Shown piece by piece: positions 8,212 through 40,121 of a stretch of DNA of 56,136 nt. Both the position numbers and the translations under genes were made by a program. The DNA lies in the IMG/VR virus record IMGVR_UViG_3300025848_000049, positions 1 to 56,136 of that record. One strand, 5' to 3'. A model generated the notes under the pieces. The model was not told where the DNA came from, made no database searches, and saw only the letters and a program-made list of their open reading frames with translations. Origin of the DNA: a virus (taxonomy: Duplodnaviria > Caudoviricetes). Numbering within the stretch: the stretch's first letter is position 1; each line of letters opens with the position of its first letter.

Positions 8212-8237
8212 TGATCTCTCCTTAAAGAACTAGCTAC

Positions 8238-8492: not shown

Positions 8493-8513
8493 TTCAGTCT
8501 CCCGATTGTAGAG

Positions 8514-9572: not shown

Positions 9573-9581
9573 GGAGCTACC

Positions 9582-10157: not shown

Positions 10158-10158
10158 C

Positions 10159-10551: not shown

Positions 10552-10560
10552 TCTATCCCC

Positions 10561-11993: not shown

Positions 11994-12002
11994 TTCTTAC
12001 TC

Positions 12003-15819: not shown

Positions 15820-16549
15820 TTAACGGACCCGTCTTCGGAACTTGGTTGAAATTATACGGCAAGCCGGGGTCATTGCCACCAATATCGTCAGGCACAAATA
15901 GGCTCGTGCCCGGCTCTTCATTGAGGCCAAACGGGGGCTCGCCAGTGGTCTGGGTGACGCGGTTCTGGCTGCTCTGAGTGATTCGGTTCTGGGTGTTGCC
16001 CATGGGCAGGCCGGTAATGGGATCAATGTTGATCGCCACCGAGCCAGCGTGCGTCATGCTCCCCGTGGCATTGCTGGCAAATGACACCGTGTACGACCCA
16101 GAGTTGCTGGAGGCCGTGACAACATAGGTGCCATTGTACGTGGCGGGCTCCATGCCAGACACCACAATAGTGCTGCCAACGGTAATTGGAGTCAGAGACA
16201 ACGGCACTGGGAACGTCAGCGTGGCGACAGAACCCGTGCCAGAGGCCGCAGAGACCTGCAAAACCTGACTGGATGTATAGCGGTTATTGGTTTCCGCCGT
16301 GACATAATCCTGAATACGGGCGTTCATGATGGGCGTTGGATCAGCCGGAATGATGATGTTCCGAAGCTGATTCTGAGGCACATCAAGGCACGTCTCGCAT
16401 ACCAAGATGCGGATGTTCATCAGGGCAGCGCCACGATAGTCAAACTGCCACTGAAGCTCATGGTGATTATACAAAAAGCCACAGCGGTCGCAGATGCCAA
16501 AGGCACGCGGGTTGGTAGAGCTTACCGATGCGCGACCGTGTGGCCTCAC
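15812..16549 (-). CDS. Virion structural protein with N-terminal CxxC...CxxC motif
   Basis: CDRC...CETC; coupled to both neighbours in the neck region. Confidence 0.65.
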
Positions 16550-17235
16550 CTAAAGTACCCCTGAATTTGCGGAGAGATGTACTGAGAGACGTACTCAGTG
16601 TTCTGATCCGCAGCGATTTGATACGCCTCGTCAGCAAACGGCTTCATGATCTGGACCTTTTCAGGCGACCAGACCTGCGCTAGCCTCGTGGCAAGACCGT
16701 AAGCAAACGCCTCCAGCCACAGATACGGGATTTCAACCGTCTGACCCGCCGTGTAATTGGCATCCTGAAGACGCCTGACACGGTAGTACTTCAGCGTGGT
16801 TGCCTCGCCGCCATCTGGCACGGGCCAAAGCGTAATCGTGGGATCAAGCAGGCGATCAAACCAATACGTGGTTGGAAAGCCCTGCTGTTCTTTATTGGGA
16901 TAGGACGCATATTCCGTGCGCGAGATCGGCAAAATAATACGGTCAGTATTAGAATTACCCTGCGCAATCGTGATGTAAGCGTCCAAGATCATGACGGTGT
17001 CGGCAGGCACGTTATAAGTAGACGTGCCCTGAACCAGCGGAACCGTTTCAAGATCAACAGCCCAAAGATTTACGCCTTGGTTAGACCACCTCGCCAGAAG
17101 CAGGTTGGTCGCCATGCGGGCCGTCTGCATATGTTCCTGCACGAGCGACGTGTTGCGCAAACCGATCAGGTTGTACGCATACAGGGTCAGCTCGCCCAAA
17201 GACGGATTGAACGTGTACGTCCCGCTGGTTGTCAT
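16546..17235 (-). CDS. Head-tail adaptor / head completion protein
   Basis: Position after capsid genes; NLLLARWSNQGVNLW, ISRTEYASYPNK..G.P, LWPVP motifs typical of podoviral adaptors. Confidence 0.65.
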   Translation of the reverse strand: MTTSGTYTFNPSLGELTLYAYNLIGLRNTSLVQEHMQTARMATNLLLARWSNQGVNLWAVDLETVPLVQGTSTYNVPADTVMILDAYITIAQGNSNTDRIILPISRTEYASYPNKEQQGFPTTYWFDRLLDPTITLWPVPDGGEATTLKYYRVRRLQDANYTAGQTVEIPYLWLEAFAYGLATRLAQVWSPEKVQIMKPFADEAYQIAADQNTEYVSQYISPQIQGYFR

Positions 17236-17247
17236 CCGGCTCTCCTA

Positions 17248-17574
17248 TTAGGCGGGGCCAGCCTGAACGACTTTAAGTTCCACAGTGCCCGTCTGACCGG
17301 TCGCCATGTAGATGCTGATGGCGCGGCAAGGAATGGTCATGCCAACAGCGGTGTCCGCCGTGACACCGGAAAGACCGGTGACGCTGAACCACAGAGCCGT
17401 GTCCTTGTCATAGCCGACAGCATTAGGATCATCCAAGGAGTACTGGATGCTGAACGTGGGCGTGCCAGCCGTGATATTTGCCGCCAGACCAAGGTTGAAA
17501 GGCGTCTGGAAGTCATCAACAGCAATAACCTCGCTGCGGCCTTCATCGGTCAGAGAAATAGTGCGGTACTGCAT
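17248..17574 (-). CDS. Hypothetical beta-rich structural protein
   Basis: ORF in the late operon with RBS. Confidence 0.6.
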   Translation of the reverse strand: MQYRTISLTDEGRSEVIAVDDFQTPFNLGLAANITAGTPTFSIQYSLDDPNAVGYDKDTALWFSVTGLSGVTADTAVGMTIPCRAISIYMATGQTGTVELKVVQAGPA

Positions 17575-17575
17575 T

Positions 17576-17974
17576 TCAGCTTTCCTTTTTCACGCCGGAT
17601 GGAGATACAGGCCAAGATTTCCTAGCGGGGCCAGTTTTCTTCTTAGCCATTGTCTCCTTCTGCGAGCTACTCATTGATTTGGCAGCAGCGGCAGGGCGAC
17701 ATGCCGGGTATGGCCTTTTGCCCTTTTCACCGGGAATCCTACCACATTCCTCACCAGTTTTCACATCACGCCAGTCTTCTGCGAACCATTTTCCAAGTCC
17801 GCCGCCAGACGCTTTGTTAACTCGGTTGTCATCACCGGACCATTTACCTCCATGCTGCTTGTACCACTTGGATGCCCAAGCATTGGCATAAGCAGACGGG
17901 TAAACGTCAAACTTGGCTCTGGCAGCAGCCTTGGCGCGGCCCCAAAGACCGGAGTTTTGTGGCTTTGACGCCAT
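17576..17974 (-). CDS. Basic hypothetical protein
   Basis: K/R-rich; YPSAYANAW and GLGKWFAEDW motifs; tightly packed in the operon. Confidence 0.65.
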   Translation of the reverse strand: MASKPQNSGLWGRAKAAARAKFDVYPSAYANAWASKWYKQHGGKWSGDDNRVNKASGGGLGKWFAEDWRDVKTGEECGRIPGEKGKRPYPACRPAAAAKSMSSSQKETMAKKKTGPARKSWPVSPSGVKKES

Positions 17975-17975
17975 G

Positions 17976-18215
17976 TCAGCAATCCCACTTACGGAGGGCT
18001 TTGTTGATACGGCTGTCAGGATCGGCAGCTTTAGCCGAGCCAGTCAGCTTGCGCTTCATGCCGGTCATCCGGGCGCAGAAGCTATCTTTGCGGGAGCCGC
18101 CTTCTGGCTGGGGCCGCTTAATGTCATGGCCTTGGGCGCGGAGAGACGCGCGGCCCTTCTCATTCAAACCGCCTTCAGGGTTCTTGCCTTCTTTGCGTGT
18201 CCATGCGCCGGGCAT
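17976..18215 (-). CDS. Small basic protein (DUF6321-like)
   Basis: AWTRKEGKNPEGGLN...SFCARM...SRINKALRKWDC; GGAGG RBS. Confidence 0.7.
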   Translation of the reverse strand: MPGAWTRKEGKNPEGGLNEKGRASLRAQGHDIKRPQPEGGSRKDSFCARMTGMKRKLTGSAKAADPDSRINKALRKWDC

Positions 18216-18229
18216 CGTATCCTCCTAGT

Positions 18230-18257
18230 AAAACGGGGGCGCAATGGCCCCCGTTTC
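18230..18257 (-). terminator. Hairpin, probable intrinsic terminator
   Basis: aaacggggg-cgcaatgg-cccccgttt inverted repeat, followed by a short U run on the minus strand. Confidence 0.55.
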
Positions 18258-18280
18258 CCACTACTGAATGGGAGCTTTAC

Positions 18281-18544
18281 TCAGTAATGGGAGCTTGCCT
18301 TGCGGGGCGAGCCCGAAGCGGCAGACGAGAACACACCGCCGCCAGCCTTACGGGGCTTGCGACCAGCGTTCATCTTAGCAGCCTCGCCATGGACCTTGCC
18401 CATAGCCTTGCCACCCTTCTTGAAGCCGTTGGTGCCGCCCTTGGCTTCCTTCACGACTTCCGAGTTAGCGCCAGCGTACACATCGGTCGGCGCGCTGTTC
18501 TTCATCACAACGCCACCGGTCTTGCGAGCATTACGACCCTTCAT
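18281..18544 (-). CDS. Small basic protein with repeated (R/K)xxGG motifs
   Basis: RKTGG, FKKGG, RKAGG; GGAGG RBS before ATG 18544. Confidence 0.7.
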   Translation of the reverse strand: MKGRNARKTGGVVMKNSAPTDVYAGANSEVVKEAKGGTNGFKKGGKAMGKVHGEAAKMNAGRKPRKAGGGVFSSAASGSPRKASSHY

Positions 18545-18564
18545 GATAGCCTCCAATGGCTAGT

Positions 18565-19020
18565 TTACGCCGTCAGGTTGCGCGCCTGAACGTAGGTAAC
18601 AGTGATAACGCCGACGCCAGCGCCGGTGTTGGTGGAAGTCACAGCGATCTTGCGATCCGTGGTGCCAACGTCATTCCAGTTGCCAGCGCGGGTAGCGTCG
18701 GTGCCCGGAGTCGCCGAAAGCGGGCCAACAGCAACGCCGTCAAGCGCGCCAGCAGCCGTCAGGAACGTAGCCGAAGCCGTCGTGCCAACGCCAAAAGTCG
18801 TGGCAACGCCATCCCAAGCAGTCGTCACCATGACGCTGATGGAAAGAATCTGGCTGTTGGCGGGGATCACAATGGAGGTCGCGCCCGAAGCCTGCGTAAC
18901 AGCCGAAGACTGAGCCATCACCACATAGCCGACGTTAGTAACGTCCGAGCCAAGAGTGGTGCCGCTCGTGTTCAGGATGTTACCGGCCTTGATCGGACCA
19001 GTAAACGTAGTAGCGCCCAT
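18565..19020 (-). CDS. Capsid decoration / minor head protein candidate
   Basis: Directly after the MCP; MGATTFTGPIKAG start with GGAGG RBS; beta-rich. Confidence 0.65.
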   Translation of the reverse strand: MGATTFTGPIKAGNILNTSGTTLGSDVTNVGYVVMAQSSAVTQASGATSIVIPANSQILSISVMVTTAWDGVATTFGVGTTASATFLTAAGALDGVAVGPLSATPGTDATRAGNWNDVGTTDRKIAVTSTNTGAGVGVITVTYVQARNLTA

Positions 19021-19029
19021 AAGGCCCTC

Positions 19030-19096
19030 CTGCACGATGCGATCTTGTAGTCTGTGCAGCGTCCGCTAGGCCGGTCTACAAGATCAATTAGCCTAG
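19030..19096 (-). ncRNA. Candidate double-pseudoknot cis-regulatory RNA leader
   Basis: Three perfect pairings (6, 10 and 6 bp) that cross each other; the last abuts the SD of the 19020 gene. Confidence 0.5.
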
Positions 19097-19099
19097 ATG

Positions 19100-19126
19100 A
19101 AAGGCGGGAGCCGTAGCCCCCGCCCT
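19100..19126 (-). terminator. Hairpin after the major capsid gene
   Basis: ggcggg...cccgcc stem followed by UUU on the minus strand. Confidence 0.5.
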
Positions 19127-19133
19127 GTCAAAA

Positions 19134-20039
19134 TTACGACGGGATAGCGCCGTAGATGGAACGCCAGTTGTAGTAGCCGAAGCTATAACGCTCGTAACCC
19201 TTAACCAGAAGGTTATCGGTCACAAAGTCAACCTGCATATCCGTCTCAAACTTGACACGCTCCATGTAGGAGAGGCCGTCAATGTTGGTGAGAAGGAACC
19301 AAGCCGACGCCGACGTGAGGAAGTCGTTGACCATGTAACCTTCCGGCAGGCCACCGGCGGTCATCATGATCGCGTTCACGTCGTTGTCCGCAGTACCCGG
19401 ACGCAGTTCCGTCTTGGTAAGGCGGATAGCAACCGGTTCCAGAGCCGCCGGGACGATCAGCTTGCGGCCACGCGCGAACACCTTCAGACCAGCCTGATCT
19501 TTGAAGTTCGTGCGGATCGCGATCATCGCGTTCAGCAGGGTAGACTCGTTAAGCTCGTTGGTGGTGTAGTTGGAGATCACACCGCCATCAATCGGGTGAT
19601 CCGACGCCACCAGCGCCTTGCCGTCACCGCCGACCGCAGCATTGTACGTCGTGGCCGTGTTAAGCACGTTCGCGCCGTAAATTTCCTTGGTCTGCTGGAA
19701 CGACTCCATAAGGCCGAGGTTGCTGGGCGCAAACTGGGTCTTGTAGAGGTTGTCGTCAATCGCCTTGCGGGTGATCGCGTAGCCGAGAGCAATTTCAGTA
19801 TGCTCTTGGTTGTACACGTAACGCTCGCCAGCGTTGTTATCAAAAGCAGTCTGACCGCCTTCAGTCTTCAACTGAGCAAGGCCCAAGAAGCGCATTTCAG
19901 CGGTACGCTCAAGCGCCATCTTGGAGTCATGCTTGGTGAAGATTTTGTCGTACTGAGACGGAATCTGCTCGTACTTGCCTTCAATTCCACGGAGGCCGGG
20001 GAGGAGAAGGTCTTTAATAGCCGAAAGATTGACAGCCAT
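19134..20039 (-). CDS. Major capsid protein (Mu gpT-like, HK97 fold)
   Basis: 301 aa after scaffold; LLPGL, ALGYAITRKAIDDNLY, GGDGKAL...HP, ERYSFG...WR motifs. Confidence 0.88.
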   Translation of the reverse strand: MAVNLSAIKDLLLPGLRGIEGKYEQIPSQYDKIFTKHDSKMALERTAEMRFLGLAQLKTEGGQTAFDNNAGERYVYNQEHTEIALGYAITRKAIDDNLYKTQFAPSNLGLMESFQQTKEIYGANVLNTATTYNAAVGGDGKALVASDHPIDGGVISNYTTNELNESTLLNAMIAIRTNFKDQAGLKVFARGRKLIVPAALEPVAIRLTKTELRPGTADNDVNAIMMTAGGLPEGYMVNDFLTSASAWFLLTNIDGLSYMERVKFETDMQVDFVTDNLLVKGYERYSFGYYNWRSIYGAIPS

Positions 20040-30750: not shown

Positions 30751-30964
30751 TTGCTTGCTCCAACGCGGCTTCCAATTCCCTGATACGGGCGGCGAACTCC
30801 CACGCCTTTTCAGAAGCAACCTCTCGGCTGTGACGCTCTTCAGATAGCTCACGCTCCAAATCCTGTATCCGTAGCCGGGCTTCACGGAGCTTTGCCATAG
30901 ACGCCAAATGGTTCTGATACAGCTTGCGGTTGCTTTCATTGGCTATATCGCCGCGCGTAGTCAT
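30737..30964 (-). CDS. Coiled-coil hypothetical protein
   Basis: ARIRELEAALE motif; G-rich RBS. Confidence 0.6.
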   Translation of the reverse strand: MTTRGDIANESNRKLYQNHLASMAKLREARLRIQDLERELSEERHSREVASEKAWEFAARIRELEAALEQANGES

Positions 30965-30996
30965 ATCACCCCCCTATATGCTATACTGGGAAAAAG

Positions 30997-31470
30997 GGGA
31001 CCCAAAGGGACCCCCTCGCCAAAGGGACCCATCAGGGGGACCCGTCCGCCTTCTTCTTCCGGGCCATCCTCCCCGCCCGGACAGCAAGCGCCTTATCAAG
31101 AGCAAAACTCCGCTTCTCCGGCGATACGTTTTGCCCGCCCTTCTTGCCCGCCCTACTGGCAAGGGACCTGTCCTTGCTAAAGCTCCTACTCTCCGGCCTA
31201 ACAGCCCTACCCCCCTTAGCCGCAATCAATCGCCGCTTCTCAGGGTCCATAGACGCAAAACCACGCCCACGGCCCTTACCACCACCCTTACCTGCATCAC
31301 TCATAGCTGTACCCCCGTGAGGGACCCAGTATGCTATAGCTCGGTGAATAGTCAAGCCCGGTGGGGACCCAAGGTTGAATTTTGGGGGGATTTCAGGAGA
31401 GGGGTTGGAACCTTAAACGGGGGGTGGCCTTCTATTAGCGGGGGGTTGGGTAGTTGGTTGTCGGGGACCC
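30997..31470 (+). repeat. Cluster of seven co-oriented GGGACCC heptamers (candidate packaging signal)
   Basis: Copies at 30997, 31007, 31024, 31037, 31321, 31364, 31464. Confidence 0.75.
31032..31304 (-). CDS. KGG-repeat general stress protein (Con-10/YciG-like)
   Basis: RGFASMDPEKRRLIAAKGG, SFSKDRSLASRAGKKGG repeats. Confidence 0.82.
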   Translation of the reverse strand: MSDAGKGGGKGRGRGFASMDPEKRRLIAAKGGRAVRPESRSFSKDRSLASRAGKKGGQNVSPEKRSFALDKALAVRAGRMARKKKADGSP

Positions 31471-31861
31471 TTTTGCGAACGCTTCTCATTTGCATCTGCC
31501 AAGGCCCCGCCCATGGTTAGCGCGGACGCGGCTGTGATCTTGCAAATGCATCTCATTCTCAACTAGCACAAGCGCTGCTTTAGCATGGCTCAGGCTGTGT
31601 TAAGCGCGGGCGAGGCTGTGCGGCGCTGCGCAGGCGAGATGCAGGCAGGATGAGGGCAGGCACAGGGGCGAGAGGTTGCCCAGATGGGCCGCGCATCTGG
31701 CACGGGGCTTGATGCGAGCCGTTCTCAATAGCGGCGGAACAAAACGTGAAAACGCGCAGGAGGCCATGCGCGCGACTTTTTGGGGCTGAGGTATAGGCGA
31801 GAGCCGCAGGGCGTCTGTGGGCTTCCTAGGGGCTTGCAGAGGCATGTCAAAAGGCTGACGC

Positions 31862-32530
31862 CTATTCCTGCCCTTTAGCCATGATGAGCATCCGTCGCAG
31901 GCTCTCCCTTTGCTCTGGATCAAGCTCGCGTGAGTCAATCACTGTGAGGTTGTTGTTAGTCACCTGCATCGCGTCAGGGCGCATATGCTCCGCATACTTC
32001 TTGGGCGCGATCTTGGCGATCATGCGCAGCCGCGTGTCAATCCTGAGCTTAGCCCTCTGCACGGCGACGTTATTGGCTGATCCGTCCGGGTTCACGTCCT
32101 GCGAGGCGTCGTCTGCAATGTCCAGACACTCGCTGAACCATGTATCTGCTGCGCTTTCATGCGCGCGCGAGTAATCCGCGAGAAAGTCGGGGCTTTCTCT
32201 TATCCACCTCCAAACCGTGCTGATATGCGGGAGGCTTGGCTGCGTCTCGCATATGCGCGTCAGTGGCACGCCCTCAGCCAATAGAGTGCAGATCAATTCC
32301 CTATCCTCATCCGTCATCTCTCTGGGGGGTCTGCCCATCCTTGCAGGGAGATTGTCTAGGCTTACCTTAGCAAGAGCTTTCTCTGTTCTCTGCGCCCAAG
32401 CAAGAGTCTCCTCCTCTGCCTGTGCGATCCTTCTCTCCTCGCGTCTCTCTGCAATCTCCTCTGGGCTGGGCTTCTTGCCCTTGGCCTTCTTGCCCTCGCC
32501 CTCGCCAGATGATGCAGCCGCCGCAGACAT
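31862..32530 (-). CDS. terS: Terminase small subunit
   Basis: GRP...ICTLLAEG..L..IC....P...TV.RW...F...Y..A...RAKLRIDTR....KIAPKKY (Sf6-like TerS). Confidence 0.88.
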   Translation of the reverse strand: MSAAAASSGEGEGKKAKGKKPSPEEIAERREERRIAQAEEETLAWAQRTEKALAKVSLDNLPARMGRPPREMTDEDRELICTLLAEGVPLTRICETQPSLPHISTVWRWIRESPDFLADYSRAHESAADTWFSECLDIADDASQDVNPDGSANNVAVQRAKLRIDTRLRMIAKIAPKKYAEHMRPDAMQVTNNNLTVIDSRELDPEQRESLRRMLIMAKGQE

Positions 32531-32678
32531 AAGCTCGCCCCCGTGAATCCTTGCAGATCAGCACTATAGCACAGCGCGCCCCTCTCTCTCATGGCGGAGT
32601 TGTCATGCAGGCCATGATTTGTTACTGTGTTCACGGGGCACTACCCCCTGCTATACCTTAACAATAGGATGAAATAAC

Positions 32679-33587
32679 ATGCTCAACCTCAACGTGAATG
32701 TGCGCCCTCTCTGCGCTCTCTCCTCTCGCGCCATGCTCGCGGGGCTGCGTCTCTCTGTATGGTCTGCGCGCCGGATTGATCGCCGCGTGACAGATCAAGT
32801 GAACGCCCAGCAAGGCGCAGCCGCAGACGCGGGGCGATATAACAAGGCGCTCCTCGCCAAGGATGCCCTCGCCCAGATCAACGCAGCCGTTAATGAGGCG
32901 CGCAGCCTCCACTATTCGCGGACCCTCCCATGGCTGGATGACGGCGCGCGGCTCCTTCCTGCAAAAGCTCACCTTGACTATTCGCGCGAGCTTGCCCGGA
33001 TCAAATGCGATTTTGACGTGGCAGTAGATGAATTCGTCGCGACCTATCCCTCATATGTCGCAGACGCCCAGCGCCGCCTCGGCGCAATGTTCAATCCAGA
33101 GGACTATCCGGCCCCGGATCAGGTACGCGCTAAATTCGCGTTCGCCTCGCGTCTCCTCCCTGTGCCAGATGCAGCCGATTTTCGGGTTGATGTGGGCGAT
33201 GCGGCTGCGGCTGAGATCAAGGCGCAGATTGAACAGGCGACGCAGGACGCCCTGCGCGCCGCAACGCGCGACGTTTGGGAACGGATCGCAGAGGTTGTCG
33301 GGCGCATGGCGGAACGCCTGCGCGCCTATCAGCCCCCGCAGCGCCCCGGCGACAGAGTTGAGGGCATATTCCGCGACTCCCTTGTGGAGAACGTGCGCGA
33401 CCTCTGCGCCCTTTTGCCCTCGCTCAACCTCACAGGCGACGTTGATCTGGCGAGGATCGCAGACGCCATGCAGCGCGACCTCTGCGCCCATGATGCAGAT
33501 GAATTGCGCCAGTGGGATCAGGCGCGAGAGGACACAGCCGCGCGCGCTGAGGCGATCCTTGCTGACGTGAAGGATTTTCTCGCCTGA
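32679..33587 (+). CDS. DUF3150-like helical protein
   Basis: LSVWSARRID, RTLPW...GARLLP, FNPEDYP, DFRVD, FRDSLVEN motifs; first gene of the AAA/vWA trio. Confidence 0.7.
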   Translation: MLNLNVNVRPLCALSSRAMLAGLRLSVWSARRIDRRVTDQVNAQQGAAADAGRYNKALLAKDALAQINAAVNEARSLHYSRTLPWLDDGARLLPAKAHLDYSRELARIKCDFDVAVDEFVATYPSYVADAQRRLGAMFNPEDYPAPDQVRAKFAFASRLLPVPDAADFRVDVGDAAAAEIKAQIEQATQDALRAATRDVWERIAEVVGRMAERLRAYQPPQRPGDRVEGIFRDSLVENVRDLCALLPSLNLTGDVDLARIADAMQRDLCAHDADELRQWDQAREDTAARAEAILADVKDFLA

Positions 33588-33639
33588 TCTGCGCTGCGAG
33601 CCCCAGCGCCTCGCGCGCTGGGGTTGTCGGGGCAGATCA
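33585..33639 (+). promoter_or_regulatory. Long intergenic hairpin
   Basis: tgatctgc...ccccagcgc / gcgctgggg...gcagatca. Confidence 0.5.
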
Positions 33640-33665
33640 GCCCATAACCTGATAAGGATAAGCTC

Positions 33666-34661
33666 ATGTTACATGCTCAACTCACAGAATCCCTCATCCA
33701 CCTCATGCGCGCCGACGTGCCCTCTTTTGTCTGGGGCGCGCCGGGCGTAGGTAAATCAGACGCGATCAAGGCTGCGTGCGCGGCTGAGGGGCGCGAGGTT
33801 GTGGAGGAACGCCTTTCTCAACTGGAGTCCATTGATCTGCGGGGCACGCCCACAGAGCGCGACGGGCGAGTCGTCTGGGCGCAGCCTACGTTCATTCAAC
33901 GCCTCTGGGCGATTCACGAGGCCGGAGGCCGGTCTGCGCTGTTTTTTGATGAGATGAATCAAGGGAGCCCCAGCACGCAGAGCGCCTGTTATCAGATCGT
34001 TCTGGACCGTCGCATAGGCGAGCATGTTCTGCCCCCGTCCTGTGTTGTGATAGCAGCCGGGAATCGCCTCAGCGACAAGGCGAGCGCCCAGCGCATGCCC
34101 TCAGCCCTCGCGAATAGATTCGCGCATCTTGATCTAGACTGCGACGCAGACTCATGGCGTCTCTGGGCGGATCGCGCGGGGCTCTCGCCCCTCATCTCTG
34201 CGTTCATTGCGTTCCGGCCTGAGCTTCTCCACAAGATGCCCCAGCAAGAGGCGCGCGCCTTTCCCTCGCCCCGCTCATGGGCACAGGTAAGCAAGATCGC
34301 AGACGCCCCAGACGCCCTGCGCCCTGCCCTTGTGCGCGCCCTCATTGGCGAGGAGGCCGCAGGCGAATTCGAGGCGTTTGTGCAGGTTTATCGCCGCCTG
34401 CCCTCCATTGACTCCATTATCGCCTCGCCAGAGGCCGCAGTGGTCCCTCAACCCCATGAACCTGCGCTCGCCTATGCGATCTGCGGGGCGCTCGCCCGCA
34501 AGGCGACGCGCAACAATTTCGGCGCGATTCTTACCTATGCGAATCGTCTGGACCGCGATTTTGCTGTGTTGCTCTCAACGGATGCGATTCGGCGCGATCC
34601 TGCGCTGCAAGAAACGGCTGCATATGTCGCGCACGTCACTCAGAACGGGGGGGCGCTGTGA
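33666..34661 (+). CDS. MoxR-family AAA+ ATPase
   Basis: WGAPGVGKS, LFFDEMN, AAGNR, ALANRF, PSPRSW. Confidence 0.9.
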   Translation: MLHAQLTESLIHLMRADVPSFVWGAPGVGKSDAIKAACAAEGREVVEERLSQLESIDLRGTPTERDGRVVWAQPTFIQRLWAIHEAGGRSALFFDEMNQGSPSTQSACYQIVLDRRIGEHVLPPSCVVIAAGNRLSDKASAQRMPSALANRFAHLDLDCDADSWRLWADRAGLSPLISAFIAFRPELLHKMPQQEARAFPSPRSWAQVSKIADAPDALRPALVRALIGEEAAGEFEAFVQVYRRLPSIDSIIASPEAAVVPQPHEPALAYAICGALARKATRNNFGAILTYANRLDRDFAVLLSTDAIRRDPALQETAAYVAHVTQNGGAL

Positions 34662-35866
34662 TGGACGCCCTCACAAGAATCAAGGGCGCGCGCAGCGCCC
34701 TCATCCTCTCGCAGCCTTTCTGGGGTTGTCTCAGCCTCAACCTGAAACTGCAGGAGCGCCCAGACATAGACACAGCCGCGACGGATGGAGAATCCCTGTT
34801 CTTCAATGCCGGATTCATCAATTCCCTGCGCGAGCGCGAGCTTGTGGGGTTGATCGCTCATGAGGTGGAACACGTCGCACGCCTGCATTGTTTCCGGCGG
34901 GGCACGCGAGATGCGCGCCTCTGGAACATTGCTTGCGATCTGGCGATCAATGAGGGGTTGCGAGCCGCAGGCTTTCATCTCCCGGAGGGCGCGCTGTTCA
35001 ACCCGAAATATCGGGGGCAAAGCGCAGAGGCGATTTACAAGGCGCTCGCCCGCGAGGAACAGAATCAGCGCCAGAAGGATCAGCAAGGGCAGGGCGCGCA
35101 AGCCCCCGGTTCGCAGGGGCAGCCTCAGCCGGGGCAGGCTCAGGGACAACCTCAGCCGGGGCAGGGGCAGGGCGCGCCTGATCCGGGGCGCTGCGGGGGC
35201 GTGCTCGACTCGCCCGCGCCACAGGGCGAGCGCGAGGCCGCAGAGGCGCGCGCACAGGCTCAGATCAGGCAGGCCGCAGCCGTCGCACGTCGCGCAGGCT
35301 CGCAGCCGGGAGCCGTCGCAGAGGCGCTGGGCGAGATCAGCCGGGGGCGCAACCCGTGGCGCGAGATTCTGCGCCGTTTCGCAGATCAATCCTCCCTGAA
35401 AGACACCTCATGGCTGCGGCGCTCGCGGCGCTCCTCCGGCGCTGTGATCCTGCCCTCTCAGGTGTCAATCGCCCCCGCGCATGTTGTCTGCGTTGTCGAC
35501 TCCTCCGGCTCAATGGATCGCAGCGCCTTGCGCGCCATTGTGGGCGAGTTGCAAGCTCTCCTTGATGAGCAAGCCGCAGATCAGATCAGCCTGATTCAAT
35601 GCGACACAGCCGTGCGACGGGTTGAGACGTATCAGCCGGGCGACGTGATAGATGGGCGCATGGAGGGGCGCGGGGGCACTGCGTTTGCGCCTGCGTTCGC
35701 CTATATCTCCAGAGAGATTCCAGACGCGAGCGCAATCCTTTACCTCACTGACCTTGATTGCGACTCATGGGGCGAGGAACCGGCCTGCCCCGTCCTGTGG
35801 GCCGCAACCGAGCGCCCCCGCCCCGTACCATGGGGCGAGGTTGTCGAGATTGACGCGCACGCCTGA
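34658..35866 (+). CDS. DUF2201-type putative metallopeptidase plus vWA domain protein
   Basis: TAATDG, HEVEH (HExxH), WNIACDLAIN; VDSSGSM MIDAS; GRGGTAF; YLTD. Confidence 0.88.
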   Translation: MMDALTRIKGARSALILSQPFWGCLSLNLKLQERPDIDTAATDGESLFFNAGFINSLRERELVGLIAHEVEHVARLHCFRRGTRDARLWNIACDLAINEGLRAAGFHLPEGALFNPKYRGQSAEAIYKALAREEQNQRQKDQQGQGAQAPGSQGQPQPGQAQGQPQPGQGQGAPDPGRCGGVLDSPAPQGEREAAEARAQAQIRQAAAVARRAGSQPGAVAEALGEISRGRNPWREILRRFADQSSLKDTSWLRRSRRSSGAVILPSQVSIAPAHVVCVVDSSGSMDRSALRAIVGELQALLDEQAADQISLIQCDTAVRRVETYQPGDVIDGRMEGRGGTAFAPAFAYISREIPDASAILYLTDLDCDSWGEEPACPVLWAATERPRPVPWGEVVEIDAHA

Positions 35867-35874
35867 GAGCCCCA

Positions 35875-35905
35875 GAGAGCCCCGCAGATCGCCTGCGGGG
35901 CTCTC
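35875..35905 (+). terminator. GC-rich hairpin after the vWA gene
   Basis: gagagccccgcag-atcgc-ctgcggggctctc; no U tract. Confidence 0.45.
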
Positions 35906-36185
35906 CTGCTATGCCCCCACAGGGGCGAGCCTCGCCCGGCCTCAGCGCCTCGCGCTGCGATCCTGAGAGCCTGCCCCTGAGAGCCCCAGCGCCCAGCGCA
36001 GCCCCCGTGCTGCGTTGCGCCCTGCGGCCCTGCGCCACTGAGCGCCCAGAGAAAGGTTGAGCTTATGCAAGCATGATCTGCGCTATGAGCGCAAGCTATA
36101 CAATGAGCGCGAGCTGTGCTATGAACATGGCCTGAGCCATTGCGCGTGCGTTCGCGCTTGCGTGCGCGTGGATTGAACCATTCAC

Positions 36186-36277
36186 TTGGTTGATTGGTTG
36201 GTTGGTTGCGCTTGGTTGGTTGGTTTACTTGGTTGGTTGGTTGGTTGGTTAAAATAACTTGGTTGGTTTGGTTGGTT
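36186..36277 (+). repeat. (TTGG)n tandem array, 16 units
   Basis: Direct reading; interrupted by short spacers. Confidence 0.95.
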
Positions 36278-36281
36278 ATTG

Positions 36282-36310
36282 TTGACTCATGGCAATTTGC
36301 CATGTATGGT
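36282..36310 (+). promoter_or_regulatory. Sigma70-type promoter with palindromic operator filling the spacer
   Basis: TTGACT-17-TATGGT; the spacer is CATGGCAA-T-TTGCCATG. Confidence 0.7.
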
Positions 36311-36348
36311 TGGTTTACGGTCCAATATACCGTAAGGGAGATAAACTC

Positions 36349-36528
36349 ATGTTTACGTATATCTGCTTCTATCGCGGCAAACAGATCACGGTTCAGGCGT
36401 TGCGGTCCTTTGACGCGCAGGAGAAAGCCGCCAAACTCTTTAAGGCTCGCAAGTCTTATGAAGTGACGGTTGTTCTCGCCGCCCGCCCAGATGGGTCTGA
36501 GGTTATCCATTCAACCGCTGGCGTATGA
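36349..36528 (+). CDS. Small hypothetical early protein
   Basis: GGGAG RBS; MFTYICFYRGK... Confidence 0.7.
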   Translation: MFTYICFYRGKQITVQALRSFDAQEKAAKLFKARKSYEVTVVLAARPDGSEVIHSTAGV

Positions 36529-36539
36529 GGGAGGGGGCA

Positions 36540-36827
36540 ATGAACAATTTACCCTTTAACATCGCAGACCTGTGCGGAATCATGATGAACGCCGCGCCAA
36601 AGCCGGAGCCCGAGCGCGTGAAATACGACAACCCTATCCAATGGACCGAAGAAGGCGACGGGACTTTCACCCTCACCTATTTTGGCAAGGTGGTTGGTTG
36701 GATGAACAAGACCAAACTGGACCGTCGCGAGGGTAACGCCTATCGCGCCGTGTCATTGCATGGAAACGTGCGCCTGTGTTGGTCACAGAACATGGCAAGG
36801 GATTGGTTGCTAGAGCAATACCACTAG
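36540..36827 (+). CDS. Hypothetical protein
   Basis: GAGG RBS; followed by a terminator. Confidence 0.6.
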   Translation: MNNLPFNIADLCGIMMNAAPKPEPERVKYDNPIQWTEEGDGTFTLTYFGKVVGWMNKTKLDRREGNAYRAVSLHGNVRLCWSQNMARDWLLEQYH

Positions 36828-36853
36828 CAGCCATGGTTGAGCGTGACAGACTT

Positions 36854-36875
36854 GGGGGCTTCGGCCCCCTTTTTT
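36854..36875 (+). terminator. Intrinsic terminator (UUCG loop)
   Basis: gggggc-ttcg-gccccc-tttttt. Confidence 0.85.
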
Positions 36876-37800
36876 ATTTCACGACCGACAACCTTGGACG
36901 CGGGTTATTGGCTTCGCGAATGAACACGTCATTCCAATCCTCGCCAGCAATGGTTGGGATCTTTACCTCCACCTTGCGCTTGAATTGAACCTCCAAACGG
37001 TTGGCAAGATGATACGCCTTGGCCTGACCCGTGAAGCTCGTGTCATTGTCACCAAACACAAACACTTCCTCGGCCACCTCCGGGGGCACCCACTTGGATA
37101 ATAAGTTGCCATTCACGCAAGCCCAGACTGGCATGTCAAACATAAGCGCGGCGCTAATGGCAGTCTCAATCCCTTCAGCCACGCCCATGCGGGCTTTGGC
37201 AGGGGCCAGCCGGATCGCGCAGCCATCTGGCAGCTTCCCCGGCATGACTTTCTTGGATGGTTCCACCTTGGCCTTGTTTCCGTCACGGTCAAGTAATGTG
37301 ATATGAACATTCACAGCCTTGTCTGTATGCGTGATGATCTTAGCCAGCATGGCTGGTTTGCGGTCATATTCTCTGATCGCATTAGACGGCCACAGACAGC
37401 CAACTCGTTGTGACAAGTATCGGTCCACCGGCCCGTCCAAAACGGGCGTCCTACCCCCCTCCCAAGCCCTGCGAATGGCATTGTATTGGTCCACCTCTGT
37501 CTGGTTGATTGGTTTACGTGTGTATTGCTGGTCAAGTCCCAGCAAAATTTCCATAGACTTGGCTATTTGGGAATATTCCTTACCTGTCACCCTCATGGCA
37601 AGGTTGAAGCCGTCACCAGCTCCGCATTGGTTGCAGATGAACCCGCCGTCCCCGTTCTGGTCGTCAAACCTGAAACGGTCCTTGCCATGACAGATCGGGC
37701 AAGGGCCGTGCTTGTTTACAAGAGCTTGAGCGTTTACTCCCAGCGCGGGCAGGATCAGACGCCATTGACCACGCGCCGCCAGCTTCAGGTCTTGGCTCAT
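36874..37800 (-). CDS. DNA primase (P4 alpha-type zinc-binding domain plus TOPRIM)
   Basis: HGPCPICHGKDRFRF...CNQCGAGDG; AEGIETA; GDND. Confidence 0.9.
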   Translation of the reverse strand: MSQDLKLAARGQWRLILPALGVNAQALVNKHGPCPICHGKDRFRFDDQNGDGGFICNQCGAGDGFNLAMRVTGKEYSQIAKSMEILLGLDQQYTRKPINQTEVDQYNAIRRAWEGGRTPVLDGPVDRYLSQRVGCLWPSNAIREYDRKPAMLAKIITHTDKAVNVHITLLDRDGNKAKVEPSKKVMPGKLPDGCAIRLAPAKARMGVAEGIETAISAALMFDMPVWACVNGNLLSKWVPPEVAEEVFVFGDNDTSFTGQAKAYHLANRLEVQFKRKVEVKIPTIAGEDWNDVFIREANNPRPRLSVVK

Positions 37801-39389: not shown

Positions 39390-39454
39390 GTCCGTAATAG
39401 AGACTAGGTAGTCCGTAATAGAGACTAGGGGGCCCTAGTCCGTAATAGAGACTA
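39390..39454. repeat. Three 17-bp iterons GTCCGTAATAGAGACTA (putative replication origin)
   Basis: Copies at 39390, 39411, 39438; AT-rich stretch at 39301-39340; between HTH initiator and helicase. Confidence 0.8.
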
Positions 39455-39462
39455 CCCCCCTG

Positions 39463-39786
39463 TCATTGCAGCTTGGGCTCATCCACCAGATTGACTGTCA
39501 AGTTTGAGATTCCTGTCTCAACGTGTGACAGGTCCAGCCGGTACATGGTGGATTGATTTCCGCTCTTGCGAAGCCTCCGCTTGCGAGTAATCAGCTTCTT
39601 CTTTTCAAGACCAAGCAAACATTTGCAGATCGTGGCGCGAGACATGCCGGTATCAATGCAGAGCCTACGGATGGACGGCCAACAAACACCTTCAGCGTTA
39701 GCGTAGTTCGCCAGCATAAGTATGGTGAGTTTTTCATAGGGAGGCAGCGGTTGAGTAACTGCCCACGTCATAGCTTGGAAAGACAT
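39463..39786 (-). CDS. Winged-HTH replication initiator-like protein (HTH_36 type)
   Basis: MSFQAMTWA...EKL.ILMLANYA...CWPSIRRL...GMSRATI...LE. Confidence 0.8.
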   Translation of the reverse strand: MSFQAMTWAVTQPLPPYEKLTILMLANYANAEGVCWPSIRRLCIDTGMSRATICKCLLGLEKKKLITRKRRLRKSGNQSTMYRLDLSHVETGISNLTVNLVDEPKLQ

Positions 39787-39810
39787 TTGACCACTCCGGT
39801 ACGGAGCGGA

Positions 39811-39924
39811 TTGCAATTCTCACGATTTACGGTATAAACATCACTGTCAGACCGAAATCGCGGATGCATCCCGCGTTTCATTCCGAAGCCCGAATGGTTA
39901 GCGCCGTTCGGGCTTCATCTTTTT
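39811..39924 (+). ncRNA. Candidate antisense (countertranscript) sRNA with promoter and terminator
   Basis: TTGCAA-16-TATAAA at 39811-39838; hairpin cgcgg..ccgcg; hairpin gaagcccgaa..ttcgggcttc followed by a U tract. Confidence 0.55.
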
Positions 39925-39932: not shown

Positions 39933-40121
39933 CTATTCAGGCGTAGTAAGCAACTCTAACGCCTTGATAACACTATATGGTATGCGGCTTTCCCCCGATA
40001 ACCACCTATAGAGAGTCCGCTCATTAACGCCGAGATAATCGGTCACTTCCGCATAGGTGTTGCCAGTCTTGTTCACCAATTCGCGGAGGTATTCCATTTC
40101 ATCTTTTTGCTGTTTCTTCAC
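39933..40121 (-). CDS. Small XRE-type HTH regulator
   Basis: TYAEVTDYLGVNERTLYRWLSGESRIP. Confidence 0.8.
   Translation of the reverse strand: MKKQQKDEMEYLRELVNKTGNTYAEVTDYLGVNERTLYRWLSGESRIPYSVIKALELLTTPE

Follow-up and report, generated by a model that had tools for sequence, protein, structure and literature searches.

Features of the locus

The window, that is the whole stretch of DNA analysed, is the 56,136-nt virus record IMGVR_UViG_3300025848_000049 (Duplodnaviria; Caudoviricetes), described as a freshwater phage. At the locus, an Sf6-type small terminase gene (terS) and a divergently transcribed operon of accessory (cargo) genes lie together with non-coding DNA (Table 1). The terS product matches PDB 4dzj/3hef (E 4e-18) and carries an N-terminal extension of about 63 residues. 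The name MoxR/CobS-like for the product of cargo gene 2 is our own label, taken from the matches to AAA_5 and phrog_249 ("porphyrin biosynthesis"). No cargo gene had a match in PADLOC. Repeats of about 20 nt (TTAGCGCGG..GGCTGTG, recognised by eye) are found in the non-coding tail downstream of terS.

The left border has seven copies of GGGACCC, all on the + strand; the window as a whole has 16, where 7.1 are expected. They surround a gene with KGG repeats and read GGGTCCC on the strand of the late genes. Close to them GTTGGGTAGTTGGTTG (31445-31461) is a short copy of the word of the right-hand array, on the same strand as the array. The (TTGG)n array itself consists of three to four blocks, each starting with ACTTGG, and is unique within the window. 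The spacer of the promoter-like site holds an 8+1+8 inverted repeat, CATGGCAA-T-TTGCCATG (36288-36304). The 100-aa early ORF is conserved in relatives at 33-92% identity, and a family search found no DNA-binding fold for either of the two ORFs downstream of the array (the fold model was unusable).

Table 1. Features of the terS region and its borders, in positions of the window
Feature	Position	Strand	Evidence or remarks
Left border, backbone DNA, conserved in L002	30997..31470	+	GGGACCC cluster, GTTGGGTAGTTGGTTG; homology to 31521
Non-coding module tail downstream of terS	31471..31861	.	3 GGT/ACC in 391 nt
GGT/ACC-poor zone: exchangeable module with terS, cargo and own non-coding DNA	31521..36183	.	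Counts, L002 breakpoints
terS, small terminase subunit, Sf6 gp1 type	31862..32530	-	PF20901 1.9e-29; phrog_1482
Divergent intergenic region, terS / cargo operon	32531..32678	.	Promoter-like site, - strand, 32592..32563
Cargo gene 1, weak DUF3150 match	32679..33587	+	7.3e-5, 22.6 bits; below Pfam cut-off 24.9
Cargo gene 2, AAA+ ATPase	33666..34661	+	AAA and AAA_5; phrog_1297 7.7e-80; phrog_249 8e-10
Cargo gene 3, DUF2201_N putative metallopeptidase and vWA-like DUF2201	34658..35866	+	1.8e-46, 1.1e-23; phrog_1314
GC-rich non-coding module end	35867..36183	.	2 GGT/ACC in 314 nt; 18-nt and 12-nt repeats
Tandem array (TTGG)n	36184..36281	+	TRF period 4, 15.5 copies; 16 TGGT in 105 nt
Promoter-like site TTGACT-N17-TATGGT, directly after array	36282..36310	+	Conserved in L002, L082, L130
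Two small early ORFs, 59 and 100 aa	36349..36827	+	No family match found
DNA primase: T7-type zinc ribbon, DUF7146, Toprim_3; candidate GGT reader	36874..37800	-	PF08273 1.3e-14; PF13362 1.3e-17; phrog_510

Word counts in the tract

The YGGT/ACCR desert is real. Between 31471 and 36180 there are 13 copies against ~96 expected from the rest of the window, and the original prediction, which had given about 13, is confirmed. By the same standard TGGT/ACCA occurs 6 times (46.4 expected), CGGT/ACCG 7 times (49.3) and GGT/ACC 58 times (152.6), the last being 0.37 of the expectation from base composition. Consecutive 500-nt windows from 31501 to 36000 hold 1, 2, 1, 0, 1, 2, 1, 1 and 3 YGGT/ACCR, compared with 3-29 in the 103 other full windows; the array-bearing window 36001-36500 holds 24. 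GTTGG/CCAAC is absent from all nine tract windows, as had been claimed. AGGT (32 observed, 32 expected) and GGTT (29 observed, 32 expected) are not depleted in the zone of the window, and YGGT is therefore the correct description here. The tract also deviates more in 4-mer composition than any other part of the window (KL 0.30 vs 0.08-0.16 outside the tract), with GCGC 3.5-fold up and GTA/TAC and CTAC/GTAG down.

The limits of the desert were correctly foreseen. It starts after GTTGGGTAGTTGGTTG and the GGGACCC cluster and ends abruptly at the 16 TGGT of the array, with DNA rich in the same word on either side.

Depletion at the DNA level

In the tract every frame, both strands and the non-coding DNA are depleted. 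The non-coding part (931 nt) holds 9 GGT/ACC against about 34, an expectation that we calculated from a density of 36 per kb at about 60% GC, and the tail downstream of terS resembles the genes in this respect. When synonymous codons were shuffled with protein and codon usage preserved, the off-frame GGT+ACC count of the four tract genes was 41 vs 59.0 +/- 5.0 (P 0.002; z -3.6). The same shuffle gave 68 vs 72.0 for terL and portal and 79 vs 81.1 for primase, helicase, MTase and orf249. The off-frame count lies under that of the shuffles in six of six zones (pooled 164 vs 244, z -7.2), and GGT/ACC is the word with the most zone-specific off-frame avoidance (z -8.1 in zones, -1.5 in backbone).

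For the frame-wise, 4-mer and 5-mer zone comparisons, the comparison of L002 with L130 and the lineage-specific word absences the limits were set by eye from YGGT maps and the comparisons are circular to that extent; in ten pooled zones the observed/expected ratio of sense GGT by frame is.33/.27/.57 vs 1.04/.65/1.11 outside, that of ACC.53/.48/.29 vs 1.11/1.01/.46, and that of non-coding GGT/ACC.49 vs 1.02. Because all frames, both strands and non-coding DNA are affected and the effect survives synonymous shuffling, GC content, amino-acid composition and codon bias are ruled out as its cause. The earlier claim that the depletion is not the codon bias of one gene agrees with both the frames and the shuffles, and correction for codons and amino acids does not remove it.

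An exchangeable module under continuing constraint

The relative L002 has a backbone 97-98% identical to the window but a different 4.7 kb at the corresponding place, with breakpoints at 31521 and 36190. The region 31521-36183 is an exchangeable module for packaging specificity and cargo in a clade of freshwater tailed phages. Cargo families differ among the relatives and terS is only 29-45% identical, while L082 carries the cassette of the window (terS 96% identical).

The desert was found in all ten usable non-redundant clusters, which carry non-homologous cargo and have a zone GC of 0.46-0.63, both above and below that of the backbone. In the comparison of 32 words over these clusters, the only zone analysis with limits set independently of GGT, GGT/ACC is the lowest word and lies under the late-gene flank in 10/10 clusters (mean log2 -0.96). 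GTA/TAC and GTG/CAC are low in the modules of the clade as well. Anchored profiles of the relatives and the whole genome of G001 also support a conserved desert. Of the three bins around the start of terS, two or all three are at or below 0.63 in the window and in all 16 relatives with terL at 75% or more; with terL at 45-71% only three of ten relatives reach two low bins, and the depletion is weak or absent in seven.

The depletion is actively maintained in two cassette lineages. Between the window and L082, 483 substitutions have left GGT/ACC at 49-52 where codon-aware random placement gives about 80 (0/400 simulations as low, in both directions). Between L002 and L130, with 444 substitutions, the count is 48-53 against about 76 (0/300, in both directions). 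The claim that selection keeps the motif out is upheld, and the clade keeps its module 2-4-fold poor in GGT/ACC at the DNA level, whatever genes are carried.

A passive signature would require cassettes from a separate mobile gene pool that is GGT-poor by chance of composition, through mutation bias or selection elsewhere, with the arrays unrelated. The tract does deviate from the backbone in many words besides GGT, the edges of the depletion are recombination breakpoints, and cassettes move between backbones, with a signature that sometimes fits another array type (the window, L137). Phages L108 and L113, in which the closest distant vWA homologues occur, are GGT-poor genome-wide (o/e 0.61-0.63). 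However, there is no depletion around vWA homologues in 37 of 40 other loci (L083-L122; exceptions L107, L108, L113), nor is it general among the relatives with terL at 45-71%. Unrelated cargo with zone GC on either side of the backbone value, a depletion exceeding the effect of codon usage and protein sequence, maintenance in two lineages that share flanks with the backbone and unit copies at both borders make this explanation quite improbable. The related proposal of a horizontally acquired island holds in so far as the tract is a swapped cassette; it fails to explain the depletion because the depletion is maintained in situ.

Border arrays

The module sits between two backbone elements that concentrate GGT-core words: the tandem array, which immediately precedes the early rightward promoter, and the same-strand GGGACCC cluster with the short array copy upstream of the late genes. 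The (TTGG)n array is conserved in L002, L082, L130 and L132. Array units vary among relatives (TTGG, CGGTC, TGGTCA and others, with TTGGTGG in L038) and all contain GGT or its complement. The array is on the opposite strand in L136 and of mixed orientation in four lineages. In relatives of the TGGTCA type, 10-25 heptamer-like units stand in direct and inverted order, and a small hydrophobic ORF shares some of its sequence with the array. In the window a copy of CAACCAA is found some 400 nt beyond the stop codon of terS, with equivalents in L002 (+467) and L018 (+403).

It had been proposed that the array unit equals the depleted k-mer. GGT is present in all units and depleted everywhere, and the relatives keep a desert beside a GGT-holding array. 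In eight of ten non-redundant clusters the 4-mer of the own unit (GGTC or GGTT) is depleted more strongly than the other; the window and L137 do not conform, L137 having a CGGTC array and yet a zone that tolerates CGGT and GGTC. The lineage L004/L133 has no array and nevertheless a desert. Related phages with both deserts and border arrays point to a DNA-reading mechanism.

Under a recombination architecture, GT/TGG-rich border arrays would be hot spots of strand exchange beside a word-poor interior, so that crossovers fall at the edges and the module is exchanged whole. In the one clear swap (window vs L002) both breakpoints are within about 60 nt of motif clusters, and genes for Erf, a RecE-like exonuclease, SSB and RusA are present in the phage. 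The zone-depleted words include GGT, TGG, GTG and CTG, of which GCTGGTGG is built, and the L038 unit is similar to the Chi core. RecA prefers TGG repeats, which resemble Chi, according to the available part of PMC3763553. We consider this very doubtful, however. A single exchange event could be resolved, arrays of CGGTC or GGACC do not consist of TGG repeats, L002 and L130 show no maintenance of low TGG/CCA, the GTA/TAC depletion is left unexplained, and a benefit at lineage level would select only weakly for the loss of about 100 sites per module.

The arrays might instead be cooperative sites for a small backbone-encoded dsDNA-binding protein that controls the early promoter, in the manner of operators or centromeres built from short direct repeats. 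Purging the word from the module would then prevent this protein from spreading or looping into terS, pac and cargo. The TTGG-type array ends 1 nt before the -35 of the promoter-like site, whose spacer holds the inverted repeat, and the heptamer-like units of the TGGTCA type would suit such a protein. To the right of the array the early genes contain additional same-strand copies and the zone has none, and the unit copies at the other border in the window, L002 and L018 would permit looping. Small backbone HTH proteins are encoded at 39933-40121 (HTH_3/HTH_23) and 39463-39816 (HTH_36). On the other hand, a protein that reads 4-8 bp would be expected to leave a narrower depletion than one at trinucleotide level, words with no relation to the local unit are equally depleted (CGGTG 0.26, GGGTA 0.17), L004/L133 lacks the array, and the two ORFs just past it gave no DNA-binding fold. 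This explanation is rather unlikely.

Short direct-repeat arrays bound by small ribbon-helix-helix or winged-helix proteins include the omega heptads of pSM19035, the ParG tetramer boxes and the Cox and Apl boxes of P2 and 186. The arrays here are alike in having ten to thirty units of 4-8 bp, direct or mixed, beside a promoter, but no such protein was found among the ORFs searched. We know of no neighbouring exclusion zone in those systems.

Primase as a candidate reader

The GGT-core word may be the working site of a backbone-encoded DNA transaction seeded at the arrays. Selection would then clear the module of this word, which would confine the start of the transaction to the borders. The most plausible reader would be the T7-type primase of the phage itself, whose gene lies 600 nt from the array. 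We put this explanation forward tentatively; it is the best of those considered but still less likely than not. If the primase reads its sites as T7 primase does, border primers would be extended toward each other through the module, and copying of the terS/pac region would proceed inward from both sides, leaving few primer starts or junctions within it. A conceivable benefit, and this is a guess, is intact duplex for the initiation of packaging. About 57 GGT/ACC are left in the zone, and priming would therefore be reduced, not abolished.

According to the available text of PMC2910064, DnaG-type primases recognise a trinucleotide, and T7 primase uses 5'-GTC-3' with a required cryptic C and extended sites GGGTC, TGGTC and GTGTC. 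The phage resembles T7 and its gene 4 primase in its zinc-ribbon and Toprim primase, in depletion at the trinucleotide level, and in array units, which in most lineages are runs of 5'-(T/C)GGTC-3'. The window has seven GGGTC on the - strand at the left border and 16 TGGTT on the + strand at the right. In 11 pooled zones, with limits set by eye as above, the lowest of the 16 NNGTC 5-mers is TGGTC (0.24), and GGGTC and CGGTC are at 0.41 and 0.44 of expectation. The least depleted 5' context is A-GGT; AGGTC would template pppACCU, which is absent from the three functional T7 primers named in the available part of PMC2910064. The primase itself has no sequence match to any solved structure. In the alignment, zinc-ribbon residue 38 is H or R in all four TTGG-array phages and G in 10 of 11 other aligned lineages (Q in L145), a count that excludes the array-less L133, which also has G. 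This difference may be plain phylogeny.

Several observations argue against the primase. The depletion ignores the 3' base, cryptic in T7 primase sites (TGGTG 0.23 and GGGTA 0.17 are as low as TGGTC), GTC itself is hardly depleted (log2 -0.20, 7/10 clusters), and GTGTC (0.77) and TTGTC (1.02) are not depleted. The window's own array word, TTGGTT, is without GTC, unlike T7 sites, and GGTT is undepleted in its zone. The desert without array in L004/L133, the tolerance of the own array word in L137 and the reversed or mixed array strands also speak against it, as do the TTGG-type array abutting the promoter -35, regulatory in appearance, and the TGGTCA-type array overlapping an ORF. We know of no tandem arrays of primase sites or primase-site-free domains described for T7, and a literature search found none.

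Comparison with leading regions and other avoidance

The original prediction placed the desert in first-packaged or first-injected DNA, with the array as a stop signal as in T5. This is so far unsupported: terS is of the Sf6 type, and in a complete relative that assembles as a circle the zone lies mid-genome. Sf6 packages by the headful mechanism, and the T5 first-step-transfer region has a repeat-rich boundary. Overall the original interpretation is partly supported. The module does resemble T7-like leading and T5 first-step-transfer regions as a hypervariable block with changing accessory genes from which short recognition words are locally absent although the rest of the genome has many of them. 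Those regions are at a fixed end of a linear genome with terminal repeats, whereas this block is internal to a circular assembly, always contains terS and has nothing that points to a fixed end; avoidance here concerns a 3-mer and not a restriction-modification site, and this word is amplified at the border.

By the logic of such leading regions, the module would meet host nucleases or CRISPR adaptation first, shed the words that those systems read and carry counter-defence cargo, with the array as the point where the exposed DNA ends. Hypervariability and changes of cargo are indeed seen in the module, and classical restriction palindromes are avoided within it alone: GATC is scarce in the zones of L002 (2 observed, 16 expected), L004 (2/13) and L018 (4/16) compared with their flanks (47/45, 57/55 and 69/66). 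GTAC has 11 copies against about 101 expected over seven zones, and individual lineages almost lack further words, for example TACA in L004 and CTGA in L038. In Autographiviridae the leading region is first-injected and highly variable, and only its Type I R-M motifs decide sensitivity, according to the available part of PMC12455610. Defence avoidance is nevertheless unlikely here, considering the Sf6-type terS and the circular assembly of the complete relative G001, cargo without PADLOC match or known anti-defence function, and a non-palindromic 3-mer that is not a known restriction site and whose array at the border would be a liability. TCGA, the most avoided word of the backbone (13 observed, 195 expected), is less avoided in the module (4/16).

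Temperate phages have hot spots for accessory genes beside packaging genes, such as morons and the P2/P4 hot spots. The module is similar in its variable cargo, deviating composition and fixed place next to terS, but here terS itself is inside the swapped block and all cargo variants share one word exclusion maintained by selection. Avoidance of restriction sites and CRISPR PAMs in phages is genome-wide. Selection likewise removes short words from both strands of phage DNA in that case, but the effect described here stays within a single sharply bounded module, next to which the word is enriched. The window shows classical avoidance too, with 17 TCGA observed vs 213 expected.

Word depletion in the terS tract

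The tract holding the small terminase gene terS contains 0-3 copies of YGGT/ACCR per 500 nt over 31501-36000, against 3-29 in the other full intervals of the window and 24 in the interval with the border array. With the rest of the window as expectation, TGGT/ACCA occurs 6 times in the tract (46.4 expected), CGGT/ACCG 7 times (49.3 expected) and GGT/ACC 58 times (152.6 expected). The YGGT/ACCR desert of the original prediction is thus confirmed, as is the absence of GTTGG/CCAAC from the tract; the dense array of the same motif reported at its border occurs once in the window and contains 16 TGGT by count. AGGT (32 observed, 32 expected) and GGTT (29 observed, 32 expected) are spared, and YGGT is therefore an accurate name for the depleted word here. 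The observed/expected ratio (o/e) of GGT/ACC is 0.37 inside the zone and 0.95 outside, which differs from the genome-wide action seen in restriction-site or PAM avoidance. In overall 4-mer content, too, no part of the window deviates more than the tract (KL 0.30, compared with 0.08-0.16 outside it), and many other words deviate in it, for example GCGC (3.5 times up) and GTA/TAC (down).

The features concerned are collected in the table. Both the family model and the solved structure of Sf6 gp1 match terS, which belongs to the Sf6-type small terminases. The AAA+ ATPase of the divergent cargo operon is in our reading MoxR/CobS-like, and the phrog_249 match of the 500-aa AAA protein in two relatives is read as CobS-like. 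The window record is flagged linear with a CheckV completeness of 88%, and the public runs containing its sequence are freshwater metagenomes. The isolate phage collection held no close relative; the best genome match was a beta-proteobacterial MAG contig (terL 69%).

Features of the window and of related metagenomic phage loci (L numbers)
Feature	Locus	Position	Strand	Details
Late genes	window	1-31355	-	tail fibres with collagen-like repeats, portal, terL
Left border	window	30997-31470		GGGACCC cluster
107-aa protein, KGG stress-protein repeats	window	31032-31355		PF10685, 3.5e-10; between terS and terL
Depleted zone	window	~31471-36183		terS and cargo operon
terS, Sf6-type	window		-	PF20901, 102 bits (cut-off 27); PDB 4dzj, E 4.1e-18, query residues 64-184
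Cargo operon	window			divergent from terS; weak DUF3150 match, AAA+ ATPase, DUF2201 metallopeptidase-like/vWA protein
Array, unit TTGG	window	36184-36281		right border
Early/replication block	window	from 36.3 kb		primase, SF2 helicase, O-like initiator N-domain, methyltransferase, RusA, Erf, RecE-like exonuclease, SSB
Primase	window	36874-37800	-	PF08273, 1.3e-14; PF13362, 1.3e-17; phrog_510, 1.4e-67
Primase residue 38	window	37687-37689		after first CxxC
Cassette	L002, L018			500-aa AAA with phrog_249 match, DUF7192
Cassette	L004			DUF7192 beside 484-aa ORF without Pfam match
Cassette	L007, L038			DUF7227
Cassette	L057			GP88
Array, unit TTGG	L002, L082, L130, L132			
Array, unit CGGTC/GGTCGGTC	L018, L033, L137, L140, L149, L150, L155			
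Array, unit TGGTCA with TGGACC	L007, L057, L138, L143, L147, L153, L161			
Array, unit TTGGTGGTC	L038			
Array, unit AGGTCGGTTCA	L156			
Array, unit GGACC	L136			other strand
No array	L004/L133			

A search for RNA families over 30800-37000 gave two chance-level snoRNA matches and nothing else, and neither terL nor the primase matched a solved structure. For the 100-aa ORF that follows the array, no Pfam family came up at E of 1 or below, the Atlas search matched unnamed clusters only, and the AlphaFold model was unusable (mean pLDDT 47). At 39390-39429, between the helicase and O-like initiator genes, a 21-nt unit (GTCCGTAATAGAGACTAGGTA) is perfectly duplicated in tandem (1.9 copies).

Composition, codon usage and mutation

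The original prediction held that the depletion was not the codon bias of one gene, and this withstands correction for codons and amino acids. In the four tract genes every reading frame is poor in GGT and ACC, and the non-coding DNA of the tract has 9 copies of GGT/ACC in 931 nt. When ten clade zones with limits set by eye were pooled, sense-strand GGT had an o/e of.33/.27/.57 by frame (1.04/.65/1.11 outside) and ACC.53/.48/.29 (1.11/1.01/.46 outside), while non-coding DNA had.49 (1.02 outside). Limits set by eye from YGGT maps are circular, which applies to this pooling and to the seven-zone log2 values, zone GC, the 5-mer and array-unit counts and the comparison of L002 with L130. A definition free of this circularity took terS plus 2 kb upstream against the late-gene flank, without use of GGT. 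The relatives are contigs assembled from metagenomes, with redundancy among several of them, and their genes were called as longest ORFs.

Synonymous codons were shuffled within each gene, preserving both the protein and the codon usage of the gene. Off-frame GGT+ACC fell below expectation in all six zones: 41 compared with 59.0 in the window (z -3.6) and 164 compared with 244 in the six zones pooled (z -7.2), whereas backbone controls gave z of -0.75, -0.36 and -2.35. GGT/ACC had the most zone-specific off-frame avoidance among the 32 words (z -8.1 in zones, -1.5 in backbone); GTA/TAC and CGA/TCG were avoided off-frame in zones and backbone alike. Codon usage and amino-acid composition are rejected as causes by the frames, the non-coding DNA and the shuffles. 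GC content is rejected as well, since zones with GC of 0.46-0.63 (limits by eye), above and below their backbones, are all depleted. A hypermutable motif is unsupported: existing GGT/ACC sites are conserved at the average rate (0.69) between the window and L082, a relative with the same module.

The zone among relatives

In seven zones delimited by eye, log2 zone/flank depletion of GGT ranged from -0.98 to -1.72 (7/7), with a zone GC of 0.47-0.63 compared with 0.53-0.56 in the backbones. The GGT-free definition was applied to 13 non-redundant clusters, three of which were dropped because the flank was under 2.5 kb. Of all 32 words GGT/ACC was the lowest in the remaining ten, being reduced in every cluster with a mean log2 of -0.96. 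GTA/TAC and CCA/TGG were also lower in 10/10 clusters and CAG/CTG in 8/10; CGC/GCG was raised in 9/10.

Profiles anchored at the terS start were scored as low when o/e was at or below 0.63 in at least two of the bins -1000, -500 and 0. The window and 16 of 16 close relatives (terL at least 75%), some of them mutual duplicates, were low, compared with only three of ten relatives with terL at 45-71%. Anchored at the primase, the zone is present in most of 29 loci, preceded by a bin of 1.7-2.6, and absent in the three most distant; L165 (terL 69%) also has it. The terS genes of the alternative cassettes are 29-45% identical to that of the window. Of 40 loci with homologues of the vWA gene in other phages, 37 lack a local dip, and three (L107, L108 and L113) are GGT-poor overall. 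Judged from these comparisons of sequence, the desert belongs to the position within the genomes of this clade, not to one particular cassette.

Exchange of the module and upkeep of the depletion

The relative L002 has terL, primase and helicase at 97-98% protein identity to the window. Its alignment to the window runs up to 31521 and resumes at 36190, with a different 4.7 kb in between, where terS is only 29% identical and homologues of the three cargo genes are absent. L082 has the same module as the window at 89% identity. The breakpoints and this match therefore identify the desert as an exchangeable module, and the array and left cluster as parts of the backbone. The module carries its own non-coding ends. 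A search for transposon-like terminal inverted repeats gave no significant end-to-end alignment (best score 26, shuffle P 0.05). Recombination with hot borders and a cold interior, in favour of which stands the preference of RecA for TGG repeats (PMC3763553), is a quite improbable cause of the zoning.

The original prediction named a horizontally acquired island as the simpler explanation should relatives show no link between array unit and depleted word. This is borne out as far as deviating composition and breakpoints against a close relative are concerned. It fails for a relic drifting to the composition of its recipient, because GGT/ACC has been held low over 483 and 444 substitutions in two modules. 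In simulations, the observed substitutions were redistributed at random over sites matched for base change and for class (synonymous, non-synonymous or non-coding). For the pair formed by the window and L082 (483 substitutions), GGT/ACC is 52 and 49 compared with about 80 simulated, and none of 400 simulations was as low in either direction; GTG/CAC and GTA/TAC are kept low likewise, but not GCT and GTT. A second, unrelated cassette shared by L002 and L130 (444 substitutions, limits by eye) has 48-53 compared with about 76, reached in 0 of 300 simulations; there GTA and GTG behave like GGT/ACC, but not TGG, GCT, GGA and GTC. By these simulations the depletion is maintained and not passively inherited, and a passive signature brought in with the cassette is improbable.

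In sequencing run X7 a separate short contig covers terS (31468-32417) at a depth of 49.5 compared with 12-28 in its neighbours; several co-occurring strains may share the terS of the window and differ in cargo.

Border arrays

The position of the array is conserved while its unit varies by backbone, and every unit contains GGT or its complement. Arrays were present in 16 of 18 loci examined (L133 and L145 have none), with GGT mainly on the + strand of the window in 11, mixed in 4 and reversed in 1. The left edge of the window zone has GTTGGGTAGTTGGTTG and 7 of the 16 GGGACCC of the whole window, all seven on one strand and inside 474 nt; GGGACCC copies lie on both sides of the KGG-repeat gene. 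In the window, L002 and L018 a same-strand copy of the unit is found 400-470 nt past the terS stop, and the 21.7 kb of L018 contain, apart from the array, no other GGTCGGTC than this one (0.45 expected). Phages of the TGGTCA type instead have GGTACC clusters beyond the terS stop (4 of 5 copies in L007), together with additional same-strand unit copies among the early genes.

The proposed identity of array unit and depleted word holds in part. The relative depletion of GGTC and GGTT (limits by eye) follows the local unit in 8/10 clusters, but the window and L137 fail, and a separate matrix of array units against depleted words was mixed too.

The E. coli-type Chi was rejected as the array word: GNTGGTGG has 40 copies in the window compared with 9.2 expected, but none in or at the zone. 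Of these, 33 fall among the tail genes at 342-19614, a region with glycine/collagen-like repeats. GCTGGTGG itself has 9 copies in the window, 8 of them on the - strand. Within TGGTCA-type arrays a small ORF with a hydrophobic stretch (L007:4833-5054 and L161:2279-2491, both +) runs antiparallel to the early genes, and repeat units encode its tail. L137 has eight direct repeats of about 17 nt (GACAGCCCATTTTGGGT) at 9956-10195, adjoining its GGTCGGTCA array; these could be initiator iterons and mark an origin at that border.

Genome ends

The original prediction likened the tract to first-injected DNA with a stop signal as in phage T5; early packaging or injection of the module is conjectural. 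The first-step-transfer region of T5 lies at a fixed physical end of the virion DNA, inside a long terminal repeat; at the stop signal transfer pauses, and the remainder of the genome enters after expression of the pre-early genes. In the complete relative G001 (L125-L128; 61,106 nt, flagged 'linear') the first ~146 nt recur at the end with one mismatch, which makes a closed circular assembly probable. Its only run of low values is the zone, located at 26-30 kb of the 61 kb. A long direct terminal repeat is expected to show doubled read depth, with reads ending at its borders. Contig depth in run X5, an unreliable measure, was not doubled (8.2 for the zone-to-backbone contig and 8.8 for a backbone contig), which argues weakly against such a repeat.

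Local avoidance of short words is known from T7-like and T5-like genome ends, where it decides the success of restriction. The module of this clade differs in being internal and sharply bounded, in always containing terS and in being flanked by arrays of the excluded word. Its trinucleotide exclusion also persists through complete turnover of cargo and change of GC, and shapes synonymous sites, codon junctions and non-coding DNA.

Candidate readers of the word

Any process behind these findings would have to recognise a very short word on either strand, act in this module only, be shared by the clade and be linked to word-rich elements of the backbone. DnaG-type primases are proteins known to work with trinucleotide specificity, and the primase gene of the clade, with its zinc-binding domain and Toprim, adjoins the array. 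The T7 primase reads GTC, with GGGTC, TGGTC and GTGTC as functional sites (PMC2910064).

We tentatively propose the clade primase as the most plausible candidate reader. Most arrays are runs of (T/C)GGTC; in the window, 16 TGGTT mark the right border, and the left one carries 7 GGGTC on the other strand. Were they used in the manner of T7 sites, synthesis from the two borders would converge through the module. In pooled zones (limits by eye) TGGTC is the most depleted NNGTC word (0.24), and the least depleted 5' context is A-GGT, on which a primer would end in U. Residue 38 of the zinc ribbon separates TTGG-type phages from the rest: it is H/R in four phages with TTGG arrays and G in 10 of 11 aligned sequences from lineages with other arrays, L145 having Q; L133, which lacks an array, also has G.

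Against the primase, the 3' base is without effect (TGGTG 0.23, limits by eye), and GTC itself and GTGTC are not depleted. The T7 form 5'-(G/T)(G/T)GTC-3' is found in the TGGTCA arrays of relatives and the GGGTC of the left border, but the (TTGG)n array of the window holds no GTC, and in CGGTC arrays the base two positions 5' of GTC is C instead of G/T. One lineage has no array. Because of these points the primase is given less than an even chance. The array also adjoins a promoter, which counts against the primase too; that the array serves a regulator, with insulation of the module, seems unlikely.

Avoidance of a defence system in a first-exposed region would agree with the avoidance of GATC and GTAC confined to the module, and with the leading-region result of PMC12455610. 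Models of defence systems matched 0 of 27 proteins (the cargo of six zones and two small ORFs), and defence avoidance is rated as rather unlikely.

It is possible, although doubtful, that the genome is 'zoned' by word content, with the terS/pac module purged of start sites of its own primase (or of another array-seeded transaction), which would be stacked pointing inward at the borders. A module zoned in this way would be copied or handled from its edges only. If true, such zoning would add a new type of genome architecture acting in cis, in which the code is where a trinucleotide is present and where it is absent, and it would also be a selective force that reshapes whatever gene enters the module. 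We know of no earlier case of selection mapping replication priming onto a genome, and with the primase as reader this would be the first known to us. With a regulator or a host defence as reader it would still provide a simple rule for recognising functional domains and their limits in the sequences of uncultured phages. The desert also cautions against taking every compositional 'island' for a relic of transfer. The open-access literature searched describes genome-wide restriction-site and PAM avoidance and leading-region effects; a module-limited trinucleotide exclusion with flanking arrays was not found there.

Other word biases

TCGA is strongly avoided in the window (17 compared with about 213 expected from base composition; 13/195 outside the zone and 4/16 inside), and counts of CTAG and GTAC are low too, a pattern that resembles classical restriction-site avoidance by the backbone. 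GATC is enriched in the window zone (44 observed, 16 expected) and avoided in the zones of L002, L004 and L018 (2/16, 2/13 and 4/16 observed/expected), but not in their flanks. AGATCA/TGATCT has 80 copies in the window: 17 in the zone (31535-36074; 1.1 expected there) and 63 outside, about 3 times the base-composition estimate. The latter are spread over every frame and either strand, and CAGATCA is a frequent form.

GAGTC is enriched 7.8 times in pooled zones (limits by eye). CGACTCC, the complement of GGAGTCG, has 6 of 8 copies in the zone of L007 (5202-7575) and 11 of 12 in that of L057 (4976-7454), with about 2 expected per locus. Because most copies lie just outside listed ORFs, it is read by eye as a shared GGAG ribosome-binding site with its spacer, and the enrichment of both words is rejected as the exclusion mechanism. 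The zone of L018 (4270-8450) is strongly depleted in CpG (rho 0.43), with a CA/TG excess of 1.60 and 55 TGCA (16 expected), whereas the other zones are rich in CpG and GCGC.
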